IMG/VR virus record: IMGVR_UViG_2724679239_000004
Strand: one strand, 5' to 3'
Source of the DNA: a virus
Lineage: Duplodnaviria; Heunggongvirae; Uroviricota; Caudoviricetes
DNA: 37,513 bases
Part shown: positions 1 to 37,513 of the stretch, in pieces
How positions within the stretch are numbered: position 1 is the first letter of the stretch
Layout: every line of letters starts with the position of its first letter
The notes under the pieces: model-generated
Databases searched by the model: none
What the model was told of the DNA's origin: nothing
What the model saw: only the letters and a program-made list of their open reading frames with translations
Position numbers and translations under genes: made by a program

Positions 1-747
1 TTATTCTTGAGAGATACATGGTTCCCCCTTGCTGAGCCACGGCCCCTGATTGACGGTGCGTTCCCCAAACAGCCACTGCTGACGATTTAGAGGAACATCC
101 CGGCGGCGTACTATTTTGCTCGCGACCAGGCCATCGTGCTCCCCTTCCCACCAGCATTCATCCTGAAGTTTCGGGAGTGAGACGTTCAGTTTGCGGAAAT
201 GATTCTGATATTGTTGGTATGCGTTACGTAAAACATCAGACACGTTACCTTCGAGCAGTAATGGCGCAAGTGGTAATGCCAGCGGATGACTTTTTCGCCC
301 CAGATAAAGCGGAAAAACCGGATGACGTAAACCTTCCTGCAACTGTTCGAGGCTGTAAGGCGCATCGGTAGTTTTTGCCACAGCAATCATCCACCAGGCA
401 TCGGTGTGGTAGTCGCGCCGGGAGATAATCGCGCTCAGAAGATCAGGGTCGCTCAACTCCTCGCGACGGCTGAAATAACGCGCTTTACGCACCTCTTTTG
501 GCATCTGGACCGTGTGATAATCCCGTGCCCAGCGCGGGTTACGGCTGGCGCAAACCACCAGTGAATAGTGGCGGTTAAACGCGTTTAATCGTTCGGTATC
601 ATCACGTCGAATTCCAACCCCGGCAGCCAGCAGCCCCAGCAATGCTGAGCGCGAAGGCAGTTCATGGGTATGACGTACTTCGCCGGGGGCATCAACGCCC
701 CATGATGCCATCGGCCCGTGAAGCTGAAAAATCAGATATTGGCTCAT
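1..747 (-). CDS. casD: Cas5e (CasD)-like subunit of type I-E Cascade; host gene
   Basis: 248-aa ORF with motifs recalled from Cas5e: N-terminal YLIxQLxGPMxSWG, RSALLGLLAAGVGIRRDDT, RDYHTV, YLGRKSHPL. SD-like AAGGGG about 9 nt upstream of the ATG at 745-747. Confidence 0.6.
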   Translation of the reverse strand: MSQYLIFQLHGPMASWGVDAPGEVRHTHELPSRSALLGLLAAGVGIRRDDTERLNAFNRHYSLVVCASRNPRWARDYHTVQMPKEVRKARYFSRREELSDPDLLSAIISRRDYHTDAWWMIAVAKTTDAPYSLEQLQEGLRHPVFPLYLGRKSHPLALPLAPLLLEGNVSDVLRNAYQQYQNHFRKLNVSLPKLQDECWWEGEHDGLVASKIVRRRDVPLNRQQWLFGERTVNQGPWLSKGEPCISQE

Positions 748-843
748 AAGCCGCCCCTTACGCGCAGATAAAGTCCAGCACGTCCTTCATGCTTCCCTGT
801 TTATTCATCACATCAAAACTTGCGCATTCGGTCTTCTGTTCGT
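748..843 (-). pseudogene. possible 3' remnant of the upstream host ORF (candidate cas7e/casC) cut by the phage left end
   Basis: The minus-strand frame is open from the phage junction (843) to a TAA 15 bp upstream of the casD start (translation ...EQKTECASFDVMNKQGSMKDVLDFICA*). Only 27 codons, so chance is not excluded. Confidence 0.3.
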
Positions 844-848
844 TGTAT

Positions 849-870
849 TGATTCACTTGAAGTACGAAAA
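849..870 (+). repeat. transposase end-binding site, L1-like (22 bp)
   Basis: TGATTCACTTGAAGTACGAAAA, 6 bp from the terminus as for Mu L1. Confidence 0.6.
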
Positions 871-4147: not shown

Positions 4148-5086
4148 ATGAATATTTCTGATATTCGCGCAGGACTGCGCACGCTTGTAGAAAGCGAAAA
4201 AACAACTTATGCGCAAATCGCCCGCGAATCTGGAGTTGCCGCAGGAACGTTAAGCGCGTTCGTGAATAACAAGTACAACGGCGATAATGAGCGTGTTGCG
4301 CAGACGCTGGAACGCTGGCTGGAGAACTATCACCGCGCCGCAGAACTGCCAGAACCCCCTCGATTTGTGGAAACCAGAACAGCACGTCAAATCTGGACGA
4401 GTATGCGCTTTGCCAGCCTGACTGAAAGTATTTCCGTTATCTGCGGTAATCCAGGTGTGGGAAAAACTGAAGCAGCCCGCGAATTTCGTCGCACCAATAA
4501 CAATGTCTGGATGATCACCATTACCCCATCCTGCGCCAGTGTTCTGGAATGCCTGACTGAACTGGCTTATGAACTGGGAATGAATGACGCACCGCGTCGT
4601 AAAGGGCCACTCTCCCGCGCTTTGAGACGCCGTCTCGAAGGTACACAGGGGCTGGTCATTATCGACGAAGCTGATCATCTTGGCGCAGAAGTTCTGGAAG
4701 AACTCCGCCTGTTACAGGAATCCGCCCGTATTGGTCTTGTTCTGATGGGGAATCACCGCGTTTATTCAAATATGACCGGCGGAAACAGAACGGTTGAATT
4801 TGCCCGCCTGTTTTCCCGTATTGCAAAACGGACGGCAATCAATAAAACCAAAATTGATGATGTAAAGGCCATTGCGGATGCCTGGCAAATTACCGGCGAA
4901 AACGAGCGGGAATTATTACAGCAGATTGCGCAAAAGCCAGGTGCACTTCGTATCCTGAACCACTCGCTGCGCCTTGCTGCCATGACGGCCCACGGCAAAG
5001 GTGAACGTGTTAATGAAGATTATCTGCGTCAGGCTTTCCGTGAATTAGACCTGGATGTTGATATTTCAACCCTGCTGCGTACGTAA
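4148..5086 (+). CDS. B: MuB target-DNA activator ATPase
   Basis: 312 aa, Walker A GNPGVGKT and Walker B LVIIDEAD, immediately downstream of A. Confidence 0.9.
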
Positions 5087-31814: not shown

Positions 31815-32347
31815 CACCCTATCAGACGGCCTTTCTGCAATTACTGCCGTCAGGGCTTGCCTGGAATAAAAGCCCCGACAGCAAATTATCTGCGCTGGCG
31901 CAGGCCATCAGTGACGTGATTGCCACTGCGGCGGATGATGCGCGGCAAATGCTGCGGGAGCGTTTCCCTTCCACATCCCGCTGGTATCTGGGGGAGTGGG
32001 AATCATTTCTGGGGTTGCCGGACTGTACCAGCGAAAACGGCACCCTGTCAGAACGCCAGCGGGCTGCCGCAAATAAAATGCGTATGACCGGCAATCTGAG
32101 TCGGCGCTTTTATGAATGGCTGGCTGCGCAGTACGGTTTTACCGTCAGGCTGACGGATTCCACAGAAGGCCAGTGGGTTACGCAGGTCAATATTTACGGT
32201 ATTAAAAATTATCGCAACGCAACGGTGCTGGATAATGTTCTGACGCCGTTACGTGTTTATGAATCGGGTGCGCTGGAGTGTTTACTGGAGAAATATAAAC
32301 CCGCGCATCAGATTTATAAATTTGTTTACCATGACGGAGATAACTAA
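31805..32347 (+). CDS. tail protein (gp48-position)
   Basis: 180 aa, overlaps R stop and S start. Confidence 0.6.
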   Translation: MAVTPYQTAFLQLLPSGLAWNKSPDSKLSALAQAISDVIATAADDARQMLRERFPSTSRWYLGEWESFLGLPDCTSENGTLSERQRAAANKMRMTGNLSRRFYEWLAAQYGFTVRLTDSTEGQWVTQVNIYGIKNYRNATVLDNVLTPLRVYESGALECLLEKYKPAHQIYKFVYHDGDN

Positions 32348-33890
32348 TGTTTTATATTGATAACGACAGCGGCGTAACCGTCATGCCGCCCGTATCCGCC
32401 CAGCGTAGTGCTATCGTTCGCTGGTTTTCAGAAGGTGACGGGAATAATGTTATCACATGGCCCGGCATGGACTGGTTTAATATTGTGCAGGCGGAGTTAT
32501 TAAACACGCTGGAAGAAGCCGGTATTCAACCGGATAAAACAAAATTAAACCAGCTTGCACTGTCCATTAAAGCCATCATGAACAAGAATGCGCTGCTGAT
32601 AAAAAATAACCTCAGCGAAATTAAAACTGCCGGGGCATCAGCACAGCGTACAGCACGTGAAAATCTGGATATTAATGATGCCAGCCTGAACAAGAAAGGA
32701 CTCGTTCAGCTAACCAGTGCCACTGACAGCCCCAGTGAAACGCTGGCAGCCACCGCAAAAGCGGTGNNNNNNNNNNNNNNNNNNNNNNNNNNNNNNNNNN
32801 NNNNNNNNNNNNNNNNNNNNNNNNNNNNNNNNNNNNNNNNNNNNNNNNNNNNNNNNNNNNNNNNNNNNNNNNNNNNNNNNNNNNNNNNNNNNNNNNNNNN
32901 NNNNNNNNNNNNNNNNNNNNNNNNNNNNNNNNNNNNNNNNNNNNNNNNNNNNNNAACGACTCAATTCTTGCCTGGATTCGAAATACTGACTGGGCAAAAA
33001 TTGGTTTTAAAAATGATGCCGACAGCGATACTGATTCATACATGTGGTTTGAAACAGGCGACAACGGCAATGAATATTTCAAATGGAGAAGCAAACAAAG
33101 CACCACAACAAAAGACCTGATGAATCTTAAATGGGATGCTTTGTATGTTCTTGTCAATGCCATTGTAAATGGCGAAGTCATATCAAAATCAGCAAACGGC
33201 CTACGTATTGCTTATGGTAATTACGGATTCTTTATTCGTAATGATGGTTCAAATACATACTTCATGTTGACAAACTCCGGTGACAACATGGGGACTTATA
33301 ACGGATTAAGGCCATTATGGATTAATAACGCTACTGGCGCTGTTTCGATGGGGCGTGGACTTAATGTTTCAGGGGAGACACTTTCAGACCGTTTTGCTAT
33401 TAACAGCAGTAATGGTATGTGGATTCAGATGCGCGATAACAACGCTATCTTTGGGAAAAATATAGTTAACACTGATAGCGCTCAGGCGTTGCTTCGCCAG
33501 AATCACGCCGACCGAAAGTTCATGATAGGTGGACTGGGGAACAAGCAATTTGGCATCTACATGATTAATAACTCAAGGACAGCCAATGGCACCGATGGTC
33601 AGGCGTACATGGATAATAACGGGAACTGGCTTTGCGGCTCGCAAGTTATTCCCGGCAACTATGGCAATTTTGATTCCAGATATGTGAAAGATGTTCGACT
33701 TGGTTCACAGCAATATTATGGAGTGAACAACTGGCAAACATGGAATTTCCAGTGCCCTTCAGGTCATGTGTTGTCTGGTATTAATGTTCAGGATACAGGT
33801 TCCAACTCTGCCGATAATATAGCTGGCGTTTATTACAGACCAGTTCAAAAGTATATAAATGGCACCTGGTATAATGTAGCGAGCGTTTAA
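32347..33890 (+). CDS. S: tail fibre protein S (constant part plus Sv), interrupted by an N-run
   Basis: Two ORF segments, 32347-32766 and 32955-33890, in different frames across a 188-nt gap (not a multiple of 3); C-terminus ...[12 protein letters not shown] parallels the minus-strand Sv' C-terminus. Confidence 0.7.
32767..32954. other. unresolved sequence (188 N) inside gene S, spanning the expected gixL site
   Basis: Run of n characters; gixR lies about 3.0 kb downstream and no inverted copy of it is visible in resolved sequence. Confidence 0.95.
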
Positions 33891-33891
33891 T

Positions 33892-34419
33892 ATGATGCAC
33901 TTAAAGAACATTAAAGCGGGTAACGCTAAAACACTGGAACAGTACGAATTAACAAAGAATTTTGACGTTATCTGGTTGTGGTCCGAAGACGGAAAAAACT
34001 GGTATGAAGAGGTAAAGAATTTTCAGGAAGACACAATAAAGATTGTTTACGATGAACATAATATTATTGTTGCCATAACTAAAGATGCCTCCACGCTTAA
34101 CCCTGAAGGTTTTAACGTCGTTGAGGTCCCCGATATAACAGCCAATCGTCGGGCCGATGATTCCGGTAAGTGGATGTTTAAGGACGGAGCTGTAGTTAAA
34201 CGGATTTATACGGCAGACGAGCAGCAGCAACAGGCCGAATCACAAAAGGCCGCATTACTTTCCGAAGCGGAAAGCGTTATTCAGCCACTGGAGCGCGCTG
34301 TCAGGCTGAATATGGCGACGGATGAGGAGCGTAGCCGACTGGAAGCATGGGAACGCTACAGTGTTATGGTCAGCCGTGTGGATACGGCAAAGCCCGAATG
34401 GCCACAAAAGCCTGAGTAA
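33892..34419 (+). CDS. U: tail fibre assembly protein U
   Basis: 175 aa; clear paralogue of the minus-strand U' (MxHLKNIxxGNxKTxEQYELT...KWMFKDG...). Confidence 0.8.
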
Positions 34420-34424
34420 AAATT

Positions 34425-34444
34425 AAGGCCCGATATCGGGCCTT
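34425..34444. terminator. bidirectional terminator palindrome between convergent U and U'
   Basis: AAGGCCCGAT/ATCGGGCCTT, a perfect 20-bp palindrome with T-runs on both flanks. Confidence 0.5.
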
Positions 34445-34447
34445 CTC

Positions 34448-34981
34448 TCATTCTGGTTGTTCGGGAAACGTTACTGGCAAGCTGGAAGTGTCTGTAGATT
34501 CGACTTTCTGCGCAAAGAGCATCCACTCTGTTAATTTTTGTTTATTCTCGTCGGAAATGATGCCCAGCCGTAGCTGTGAGTCCCATAGCTGGGTTTTATC
34601 CCTGACAAGTTGCAACAGGCTTTGCTTTTCATTCTCTGCCTGCTGCCTCTGTTCCTCCTCGGTATAAGTTCGCTTTATCACTACGCCATCTTTGAACATC
34701 CATTTACCCGAAATGTCAGCACGGCGATTTGCAGTAATGTCAGCAACCTCAACAACGCTTAAACCTTCTGGATTTATTGTAGATACGTCTTTATCTATAG
34801 CCACAATAATTCCATCTGATGTGTAAGCAATTTTTATAGTGTCATCCTGGAATTTCTTTTGTTCCTCATACCAGTTTTTATCGTCCTCAGAATACAACCA
34901 GACAACACCGAATTGTCGCGTCAATTCATATTGTTCAACAGTTTTTGGATTTCCGGATCTGATGTTTTTCAAATGCTGCAT
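34448..34981 (-). CDS. U': alternative tail fibre assembly protein U'
   Basis: 177 aa on the minus strand, paralogous to U. Confidence 0.8.
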   Translation of the reverse strand: MQHLKNIRSGNPKTVEQYELTRQFGVVWLYSEDDKNWYEEQKKFQDDTIKIAYTSDGIIVAIDKDVSTINPEGLSVVEVADITANRRADISGKWMFKDGVVIKRTYTEEEQRQQAENEKQSLLQLVRDKTQLWDSQLRLGIISDENKQKLTEWMLFAQKVESTDTSSLPVTFPEQPE

Positions 34982-34983
34982 AA

Positions 34984-35973
34984 TTAAATACTTCCCGCGT
35001 TATACCAAGTGCCATTGATACAATACTGCACAGGTCTTGCCTGAGTTGTATCAATAAGTTCGTCCTTATTTGAGTTGATTGAGGCAGTAACAACATAACC
35101 AGATTTATCGTTCCAACCAGGACCATTCCATGTTTGCACTGACGATTTTGTACCTAATCGAATACCTGTAATAAATCGCGAATTACATTCTGCTTTGGTA
35201 TATGCACCAACATCTCCCGCTGATGGCTTGCGTGTTGTGGTGTAAATTTCTGACCAGTCAGCTTCAAATCCATAACCATCACGCGCTGAACGATAATAAA
35301 TACCGCCGTTCTTATAATTCACGCGGAATTGAACAGCCGGACAACTGCCAGCTCCCATATAAAAATGGAGAATCAACGTAGATGCTCCACCAATATTAGC
35401 GTTATAAACCCCGCTAATTGAGTTCCATCCAACGGCTTTGTCATTTCCAACAGTGCTTCCTGTCTGCCCTAAAGCAAATGCAGGTTGCTGGTTTTTTGTG
35501 CTGTAGTCACGCCGCCAGCCTGGGGCGTAATCTACGCCATGGTTTATATAAGTAAATTGCGCATTAGTGGTGCCACCTCCGGTGGAAGTGCTTGGTGTTG
35601 TTACACGGATGGTCATGGCACCTTTATTACCCATAACCTCAATAACGCAACCTGCAAGATGAATAGTTCCACAGCCAGTATCGGTAATAATTTTATTATT
35701 GCCGTATGACCATGAACATTTGCACATCCAGTATGGGTGATTGAATGCCCCTTGAGAATCCAGCCATTCAATCAATTGTGCCGTCGTCCAGTTTCCTGCA
35801 CCTGTGCTAATAGCACCATGAAAAGAGCGGCAAGCACCTATTGTTTGCGTAAATTTATCTTTGTTTGGAATATCTGCGCCGTTCTGGTTTTTCTGCAATG
35901 CGCCTGAAGCCTGATTTATCGTTTCCTGCAAACCGAGGTTTTGGATAATGGTCGATTTTGGCACGCATGGCAT
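34984..35973 (-). CDS. S': alternative variable tail fibre part Sv' (no own start in this orientation)
   Basis: Minus-strand frame open from gixR to a stop at 34984; C-terminal ...YCINGTWYNAGSI parallels the S C-terminus. The 5' extension of the frame into gin (to 36174) is antisense and not coding. Confidence 0.7.
   Translation of the reverse strand: MPCVPKSTIIQNLGLQETINQASGALQKNQNGADIPNKDKFTQTIGACRSFHGAISTGAGNWTTAQLIEWLDSQGAFNHPYWMCKCSWSYGNNKIITDTGCGTIHLAGCVIEVMGNKGAMTIRVTTPSTSTGGGTTNAQFTYINHGVDYAPGWRRDYSTKNQQPAFALGQTGSTVGNDKAVGWNSISGVYNANIGGASTLILHFYMGAGSCPAVQFRVNYKNGGIYYRSARDGYGFEADWSEIYTTTRKPSAGDVGAYTKAECNSRFITGIRLGTKSSVQTWNGPGWNDKSGYVVTASINSNKDELIDTTQARPVQYCINGTWYNAGSI
35922..35947. 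repeat. gix recombination site (gixR)
   Basis: TTCCTGCAAACCGAGGTTTTGGATAA, matching the recalled Mu gix half-site pair; located just left of the gin start. Confidence 0.75.
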
Positions 35974-36002: not shown

Positions 36003-36596
36003 GTGCTGATTGGCTATGTAAGGGTATCAACAAATGACCAGAATACAGACCTGCAACGAAACGCTCTTGTTTGTGCAGGATGTGAACAAATATTTGAAGA
36101 TAAATTAAGCGGAACAAGGACAGACCGACCGGGATTAAAACGCGCTTTAAAGCGCCTTCAAAAAGGTGACACACTGGTTGTCTGGAAACTGGATCGCCTC
36201 GGGCGAAGCATGAAACATTTGATTTCTCTCGTAGGGGAATTACGAGAGCGAGGGATTAATTTTCGCAGTCTTACTGACAGTATTGATACGTCATCTCCAA
36301 TGGGGCGTTTTTTCTTCCACGTTATGGGTGCCCTGGCTGAAATGGAACGAGAACTAATTATCGAGCGAACGATGGCTGGACTTGCTGCCGCCAGAAATAA
36401 AGGCCGTATCGGTGGGCGACCACCTAAACTAACCAAAGCAGAGTGGGAGCAGGCCGGGCGTTTAGTAGCACAAGGAATCCCCCGCAAGCAGGTCGCATTG
36501 ATCTACGATGTGGCCCTCTCAACTCTGTATAAAAAACACCCTGCGAAACGAACGCATATAGAAAACGACGATCGAATAAATCAAATCGATCGGTAA
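36003..36596 (+). CDS. gin: Gin serine DNA invertase
   Basis: GTG 36003 with SD AGGAGA; product VLIGYVRVSTNDQNTDLQRNAL... is near-identical to recalled Mu Gin. Confidence 0.9.
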   Translation: MLIGYVRVSTNDQNTDLQRNALVCAGCEQIFEDKLSGTRTDRPGLKRALKRLQKGDTLVVWKLDRLGRSMKHLISLVGELRERGINFRSLTDSIDTSSPMGRFFFHVMGALAEMERELIIERTMAGLAAARNKGRIGGRPPKLTKAEWEQAGRLVAQGIPRKQVALIYDVALSTLYKKHPAKRTHIENDDRINQIDR

Positions 36597-36678: not shown

Positions 36679-36867
36679 ATGAAATCAATTCGCTGTAAAA
36701 ACTGCAACAAACTGTTATTTAAGGCGGATTCCTTTGTTCACATTGAAATCAGGTGTCCGCGTTGCAAACGTCACATCATAATGCTGAATGCCTGCGAGCA
36801 TCCCACGGAGAAACATTGTGGGAAAAGAGAAGAAATCACGCATTCTGACGAAACCGTGCGTTATTGA
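36679..36867 (+). CDS. com: Com zinc-finger translational activator of mom
   Basis: 62 aa, [16 protein letters not shown]...CPRCKRH; SD AAGGAGG upstream. Confidence 0.85.
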
Positions 36868-37513
36868 GTATGAAGGCCAGATTGTTGGCTATGGTTCAAA
36901 GGAGCTGCGCGTTGAAACCATATCCTGCTGGCTGGCCCGCACAATTATTCAGACAAAGCACTATTCCCGCCGTTTTGTGAATAACTCTTACCTTCACCTG
37001 GGGGTATTCAGCGGACGCGATCTGGTTGGCGTTCTCCAGTGGGGATATGCCCTTAACCCCAACTCAGGTCGTCGTGTCGTGCTTGAAACGGATAACCGGG
37101 GCTATATGGAGTTGAACCGCATGTGGCTACACGACGACATGCCCCGCAACTCTGAATCACGGGCCATCAGCTACGCGCTGAAAGTTATCAGATTACTGTA
37201 TCCGTCAGTGGAGTGGGTTCAGTCCTTTGCAGACGAACGCTGCGGACGCGCAGGCGTTGTGTATCAGGCGTCGAATTTTGATTTTATTGGCAGTCATGAA
37301 AGTACGTTCTACGAGCTGGATGGTGAGTGGTATCACGAGATAACGATGAACGCGATTAAGCGAGGTGGACAACGAGGCGTGTATTTACGGGCTAATAAAG
37401 AGCGTGCCGTGGTGCACAAATTTAATCAGTATCGCTACATCAGATTCCTGAACAAACGAGCAAGGAAGCGGCTAAATACCAAACTATTCAAGGTTCAGCC
37501 ATACCCTAAGTGA
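36818..37513 (+). CDS. mom: Mom DNA-modification protein
   Basis: GTG 36818 with SD GGAG inside com gives 231 aa, the recalled Mu Mom length; the ORF ends at the last base of the window. Confidence 0.8.

Follow-up and report, generated by a model that had tools for sequence, protein, structure and literature searches.

A scaffold gap over the left gix site of a Mu-like prophage in Escherichia albertii K7394, probably left by a culture with both orientations of the G segment

Serine invertases that depend on a Fis enhancer and act at 26-base-pair (bp) sites include Cin, which acts at the cix sites of the phage P1 C segment, Pin of e14, Min of p15B and Hin of the Salmonella Hin/hix system. The closest described counterpart of the locus considered here is the G segment of phage Mu. 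Its inversion by Gin at gix sites and the resulting change of host range are textbook knowledge, and nothing reported below departs from that system. The G segment inverts slowly in Mu lysogens so that cultures become mixed, and invertible elements present in both orientations are detected from reads that support both junctions. Here we describe the G segment of a Mu/D108-like prophage of Escherichia albertii K7394, carried on a 37,513-nucleotide (nt) stretch of DNA (IMG/VR record IMGVR_UViG_2724679239_000004; this whole stretch is the window), in which a single run of Ns lies where the left crossover site, gixL, is expected. The gap probably arose from a culture that held both orientations of the segment, which is the best explanation found for K7394.

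The window corresponds to a public record, GCA_001515005.1 / BBWA01000003.1 (L033), with 100% identity over 9.4 kilobases (kb) and the same 188 Ns. Accessions BBWA01000001-59 are the draft genome of E. albertii K7394 (accession found in Table S1, PMC4700944), a human isolate from Japan, 2008, for which 59 scaffolds and 77x redundancy are listed (Table S1, Ooka et al. 2015, PMC4700944). The draft genomes of that study were assembled from MiSeq reads of Nextera XT libraries with Platanus 1.1.4 (PMC4700944). The tail-fibre region of the prophage is collinear with that of phages Mu (AF083977) and D108, and consists of the following features, given in window coordinates.

32347-32766, plus strand: Sc, the constant 5′ part of tail-fibre gene S; its first 140 codons, cut by the gap; 98.3-98.6% identical to the 5′ part of Mu S; a 140-amino-acid (aa) PF03406 fragment in the public record
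32767-32954, no strand: the N-run, an unclosed Platanus scaffold gap; presumed content 171 nt, namely the last 76 nt of Sc, gixL (26 bp) and the first 69 nt of Sv
32955-33890, plus strand: Sv, the variable 3′ part of S in the G(+) form; collinear with Mu Sv, 94.7% identity over the first 749 nt
33892-34419, plus strand: U, the tail-fibre assembly chaperone for S; 175-aa open reading frame (ORF); PF02413 (Caudo_TAP); collinear with Mu U
34448-34981, minus strand: U′, the chaperone expressed in G(-); 177-aa ORF; PF02413; position as in the Mu U′ annotation
34984-35922, minus strand: Sv′, the alternative variable 3′ part; a frame open into gixR with no start of its own, read only after inversion; 78.5% identical to Mu Sv′
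35923-35948, plus strand: gixR, the right 26-bp crossover site, TTCCTGCAAACCGAGGTTTTGGATAA; exact match, unique in the window; identical to Mu gixR at 25 of 26 positions
36003-36596, plus strand: gin, serine invertase; GTG start, 197 aa; PF00239 and PF02796
36679-36867, plus strand: com; ORF with Pfam Zn_ribbon_Com; collinear with Mu
36788-37513, plus strand: mom; ORF with Pfam Mom; collinear with Mu

In such an arrangement Gin would flip the 3.06-kb G segment (Sv-U / U′-Sv′) between two inverted 26-bp gix sites, and the flip would join the constant 5′ part of S to Sv, in G(+), or to Sv′, in G(-), with a switch of host range as the expected outcome. Two opposed gene sets, Sv/U and Sv′/U′, are indeed present on one constant 5′ part, and an invertase gene encoding a resolvase catalytic domain and a helix-turn-helix lies directly beside the segment. 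Its product is identical to Mu Gin at 190 of 193 aa, with Ser9 present. Mu and this prophage share the first 220 nt of gin with 100% identity, and this first part of the gene, compared here by sequence identity alone, presumably holds the Fis-dependent enhancer, which is located there in Mu. The right crossover site is read directly from the window, where 0 exact matches to its 26 bp are expected by chance, and no second gix copy is found on either strand of the window at ≤3 mismatches.

The N-run is 188 nt long and is the only one in the window, and no further N-run is present in the ~46 kb of the scaffold that was viewed. The flanks of the gap align to Mu AF083977 without rearrangement, position 32766 corresponding to Mu 31877 and position 32955 to Mu 32049, so that 171 nt in Mu take the place of the 188 Ns here; Mu gixL (31954-31979) is within these 171 nt. 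The 171-nt spacing recurs in every examined relative whose right flank matches in the same orientation (Mu, Yersinia phage Tongde, an E. coli prophage and L034), and a gix-type site is located at offset 77 after the left flank in 18 of 18 IMG/VR relatives. The closest of these comparisons is with prophage L034 (GCA_029360505.1), which is 99.93-99.98% identical, has the same flanks with exactly 171 nt between them (4893-5063), and carries gixL, TTATCCAAAACCTCGGTTTACAGGAA, at offsets 77-102 of that stretch. The real sequence under the Ns is almost certainly 171 nt made up of the Sc end, gixL and the Sv start, gixL being seen at the homologous position in both L034 and Mu. An earlier note on this stretch had argued that the gap in S hides gixL, and the homology with Mu and the closed gap of the 99.9%-identical L034 bear this out. 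The same note was right that gixR adjoins gin and that its inverted partner is not visible, but placed gixR at 35922-35947, one base away from its actual position.

None of the IMG/VR relatives recovered by left-flank words (18) or right-flank words (2) has an N-run at the site, and none is the source of the window. Complete E. coli genomes match the G region at only ~90% at best and so supply no closed copy. A scan of genome contigs with the Sc protein gave 334 pattern matches, of which 0 were confirmed, and exact 30-mers had 0 hits in these contigs, which places the source outside that collection. The possibility that the Ns are a length-preserving mask added later was considered and rejected, since BBWA01000003.1 itself contains the Ns, in a number that does not equal the true spacing.

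The S gene starts at 32347 (mod 3 = 1) and the stop codon of its 3′ part is at 33888 (mod 3 = 0), and the two segments are therefore in different frames across the 188 Ns, as had been noticed previously. The mismatch is explained by the 17 nt by which the N-run exceeds the 171-nt spacing, a number not divisible by 3. Once the Ns are replaced with the 171 nt of L034, S reads through as a single 508-aa frame that has 91% identity to Mu S from end to end. The gap length had also been called arbitrary. It is indeed not the true length, but neither is it a placeholder, being the paired-read estimate of the scaffolder, off by 17 nt. Taken literally, the 188 Ns in place of the 171 nt of relatives, together with the mismatched frames, could instead mark a real lesion, with ~17 extra or altered bases or a damaged gixL at the Sc/gixL junction, leaving S frameshifted and/or the segment locked; the prophage, which sits inside the host cas7e gene, would then have a locked or broken fibre switch. 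Such a lesion is very improbable. Platanus estimates gap sizes from paired reads (PMC4120091), and an error of 17 nt is unremarkable. Two prophages whose 171-nt junctions are intact match the flanks at 99.9-100% identity, and the points at which the flanks stop agree with the k-mer geometry of an undamaged site. In BBWA01000003.1, the division of S into fragments of 140 and 311 aa is an artefact of the gap and does not denote a pseudogene, and the 188-nt length of the N-run is unfit for frame calls.

The missing 171 nt are exactly symmetric, with 76 nt on either side of a 19-bp exact core, and the only repeat within the prophage that touches them is the inverted one formed by gixL and gixR, with 41 nt at 90% identity, 19 nt of which are exact (TTATCCAAAACCTCGGTTT). 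For comparison, a mixture was simulated from the reconstructed G(+) and G(-) forms, and the bases of G(+) covered by k-mers absent from G(-) were determined. The G(+)-specific stretch is centred on the core for every k, and at k = 96 the stretch at the left junction extends from 32767 to 32937, with both ends identical to those of the missing sequence. The centring involves no fitted parameter; the value of k was fitted from the gap length.

Platanus begins with k0 = 32, extends to an automatically chosen kmax and reports junction-free subgraphs as contigs; in scaffolding it cuts branches that appear 'heterozygous', and gaps are closed only where a local contig bridges them (PMC4120091). As a 19-nt exact repeat is shorter than k0 - 1 = 31, it cannot produce a branch in homogeneous DNA at k ≥ 32, and the inverted repeat alone, with only 19 nt exact, was rejected as the cause of the break. 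The same figures bear on the proposal that this is an ordinary unclosed gap, resulting from low coverage, library bias or a quirk of the assembler, which overlaps gixL by coincidence or because of the inverted repeat in homogeneous DNA. Coverage of Nextera libraries is uneven, and the right junction, with the same repeat, was assembled without a gap, as this proposal would allow. But the chance that a random 171-nt gap contains a whole 26-bp site is ~0.004, and that of exact centring on the 19-bp core is ~3e-5 (a post hoc figure); the exact inverted repeat is below any k that Platanus uses, and the gap is the sole one in 37.5 kb at 77x redundancy. An ordinary gap is, on this evidence, quite unlikely.

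A culture with both G orientations could have left this footprint in the following way. Reads from G(-) would introduce branches into the de Bruijn graph to the left and right of the 19-bp gixL/gixR core, the short junction-specific contig would be dropped or cut as a low-coverage 'heterozygous' branch, and the neighbouring contigs would be written without their k-1 overlaps. Local gap closing would then fail at the left junction, with the right one resolved. Of this sequence of events, we infer the mixture in the K7394 culture, the value k = 96 and the trimming step. Assemblies of relatives have ends at the same place or contigs of matching size. The IMG/VR contig L010 ends exactly at the gixL end, and for 83 of the 131 index blocks with the exact U protein the longest contig that encodes it measures 2-5 kb, roughly what a G segment by itself would occupy. 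Two further contigs (L013 and L018) end 3-10 nt past gixL and were not counted, as these loci were possibly cut by data storage.

Several points weigh against this explanation. The mixture is deduced from assembled sequence; among index records the exact Gin protein was found in the NCBI assembly only, and no read-level assembly of the strain was found. A mixture should also branch the graph at the right junction, and yet Sv′-gixR-gin is contiguous, so one must suppose, ad hoc, that gap closing succeeded on one side only. The value k = 96 is off the default Platanus grid of 32 + 10n and would need to be the automatic kmax. Trimming of k-1 overlaps would belong to the output routine of Platanus and is not a step stated in the text of PMC4120091. 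Finally, the inner half of K7394 gixL is under the Ns, and if it has G instead of A the exact repeat becomes 29 nt and the argument from symmetry is weaker. The earlier note had proposed a mixed-orientation population; with the k = 96 footprint, the 19-nt repeat and an inverted copy of the phage (described below) this is the best available explanation, at the level of inference and with a gapless right junction still to be set against it.

Repeats elsewhere in the genome offer a different route to the same break. Another K7394 prophage might share the crossover-site region (the Sc end, gix and the Sv start), and the collapsed repeat would then have been left unplaced in an otherwise homogeneous population. 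Of 5426 complete E. coli genomes, 717 contain parts of the 171-nt stretch; where a full copy is present, it often occurs in 2-6 places. G-like cassettes are common to Mu-like, P2-like, P1-like and plasmid-borne phages. The K7394 genome, at 5.12 megabases, is also the largest in its study (PMC4700944). Copies in other elements are, however, typically only 84-95% identical, too diverged to share exact 95-nt words. The boundary of such a repeat would not be expected to fall symmetrically, to the base, around the 19-bp gix core, and a second copy with the whole left or right flank would break the assembly elsewhere, whereas this N-run stands alone in the sequence viewed. We therefore regard a shared repeat as unlikely, and a culture of mixed orientation as the preferred cause.

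Inversion of the segment is directly documented in the phage lineage. L030 (GCA_025491825.1) contains the same phage, 99.98-100% identical, in which G lies in the opposite orientation between the two flanks. A single inner-half position distinguishes the two gix sites, being A in gixL and, read on the equivalent strand, G in gixR. In L030 this difference has moved with the segment and the outer halves have stayed with Sc and gin, as expected for exchange at the site centre. When the segment of the reconstructed K7394 prophage is inverted in silico, with exchange at the site centres, both junctions of L030 are obtained, and the S′ of the simulated G(-) form has 486 aa and is identical to that of L030. 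For the phage lineage, the segment therefore occurs in both orientations, G(+) in L034 and G(-) in L030, with exchange inside gix.

The three assemblies carry the same phage, at least 99.9% identical over a ~9.5-kb tail and right-end region, at three different chromosomal sites. These are within cas7e in L033, beside genes of the GAF-domain, HypE and HypD types in L034, and beside DUF441 and tRNA_edit-domain genes in L030. Three sites, and one of three copies with G inverted, point to a lineage that has recently been transposing and inverting.

Both the scaffold order in the window and the contiguous Sv′-gixR-gin junction follow the Mu G(+) reference. As the segment inverts as a unit, the right junction is enough to identify the assembled, majority form as G(+). 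To describe the host-range state of the prophage as unresolved, as had been done, is therefore an overstatement, which could apply only to the fraction of G(-) in the culture. The observation is one of an assembly artefact over a textbook switch and carries little biological weight, although a gap of estimated size whose centre coincides with an inversion site may be a hint of a mixed-orientation culture.

By its sequence, the element is a Mu/D108-like transposable (Muvirus) prophage inserted in the E. albertii K7394 chromosome. Its TG...CA ends are flanked by a 5-bp target-site duplication, the corresponding empty site is known, and the left end has the transposase genes A and B, a ner-like gene and the repressor gene c. 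The best overall match of the first 25 kb of the prophage is D108, which covers 79% of the query at 93.5% identity in an alignment that starts at the left end. In the left end and immunity region (844-2310) the prophage resembles D108 and not Mu, with the D108 alignment beginning at prophage base 1 and that of Mu only from ~2310. The repressor has 174 aa and is present in 4190 index blocks. Two features mark the boundary with the host.

1-747, minus strand: cas5e (casD), a host gene; 248-aa ORF; in loci encoding the identical protein, Pfam Cas_Cas5d within a cas operon; outside the switch and marking the host flank
839-870, plus strand: the TTCGT duplication (839-843), followed from 844 by the Mu-type left end TGTATTGATTCACTTGAAG; read from the sequence

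The matching right end, ...ACGCTTCA followed by TTCGT, is located at 9730-9742 of L033, and at the empty site in L037 the overlap is exactly 5 bp. The prophage, with TTCGT on both sides, sits inside cas7e (casC) of a type I-E CRISPR (clustered regularly interspaced short palindromic repeats)-Cas operon. Cas7e is truncated to 325 aa, versus 351 aa in strains with the empty site, and the Cascade operon is split by ~36.8 kb of phage DNA (window 1-870; L033 9623-10712; L037 empty site). The four spacers of the K7394 CRISPR array beside cas2 (L056 7686-7958) have no match in the prophage at ≤8 mismatches, and so this array, considered by itself, gives no sign that self-targeting selected for the insertion in cas7e. 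Housekeeping genes at the cas locus of a strain with identical Cas5 are ~92.5% identical to those of every complete E. coli genome, consistent with a non-coli Escherichia.

Three further observations concern the fibre and right-end genes. The motif NGADIPNK is encoded in Sc just upstream of gixL and again just inside Sv′ (35861-35892, minus strand; 32 nt at 84%), from which the G(-) fibre S′ is expected to have the motif twice, ~30 residues apart. The mom ORF was called at 241 aa from an upstream ATG, overlapping com by 80 nt, and Mu mom is annotated at 231 aa; the longer call is probably a mere choice of start codon. A U protein identical to that encoded at 33892-34419 is present in four other loci (L027, L031, L032 and L035), and the DNA of their U/U′ cassettes is ~88-92% identical. 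The cassettes are found in a P2-like prophage and on contigs with P2-like baseplate genes, an IncFII RepA gene and an invertase of their own. The invertible fibre cassette appears to have been exchanged between unrelated phage backbones.

In comparison with known systems, every readable feature identifies this locus as a member of the Mu Gin/gix system, gixL being present in a 99.9%-identical copy. The order Sc-gixL-Sv-U-U′-Sv′-gixR-gin-com-mom is that of Mu (AF083977), with 98% identity for Gin, 91% for S and a single difference in gixR. The segment measures 3063 bp between site centres, as in Mu, and the first 220 nt of gin are shared. In contrast to Mu, Sv′ is only ~78% identical in DNA, the last ~180 nt of Sv diverge (a 58-nt match at 83%), the early region resembles D108, the host species is E. 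albertii and gixL is unsequenced in this record. SfMu (KP010268, L002) has Sc and gin 97-98% identical to those of this prophage, although neither SfMu nor D108 is identical to it. In SfMu an Sv-homologous cassette lies beside gin and an Sv′-like cassette is fused to Sc, opposite to the Mu reference, and public Muvirus records therefore differ among themselves in the orientation of G. P1, D6 and P88 also have homologous Sv/U cassettes, with 84-88% identity. The Cin system of P1, Pin of e14, Min of p15B and Hin differ from the locus described here in their constant fibre part and genome context, and Hin controls a promoter and no fibre gene. As in other short-read assemblies broken at invertible DNA, relatives of this prophage have contigs that end at the inverted repeat, or a lone segment-sized contig. 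K7394 is unlike them in having one sized N-run, on one side only, the extent of which allows k to be estimated.

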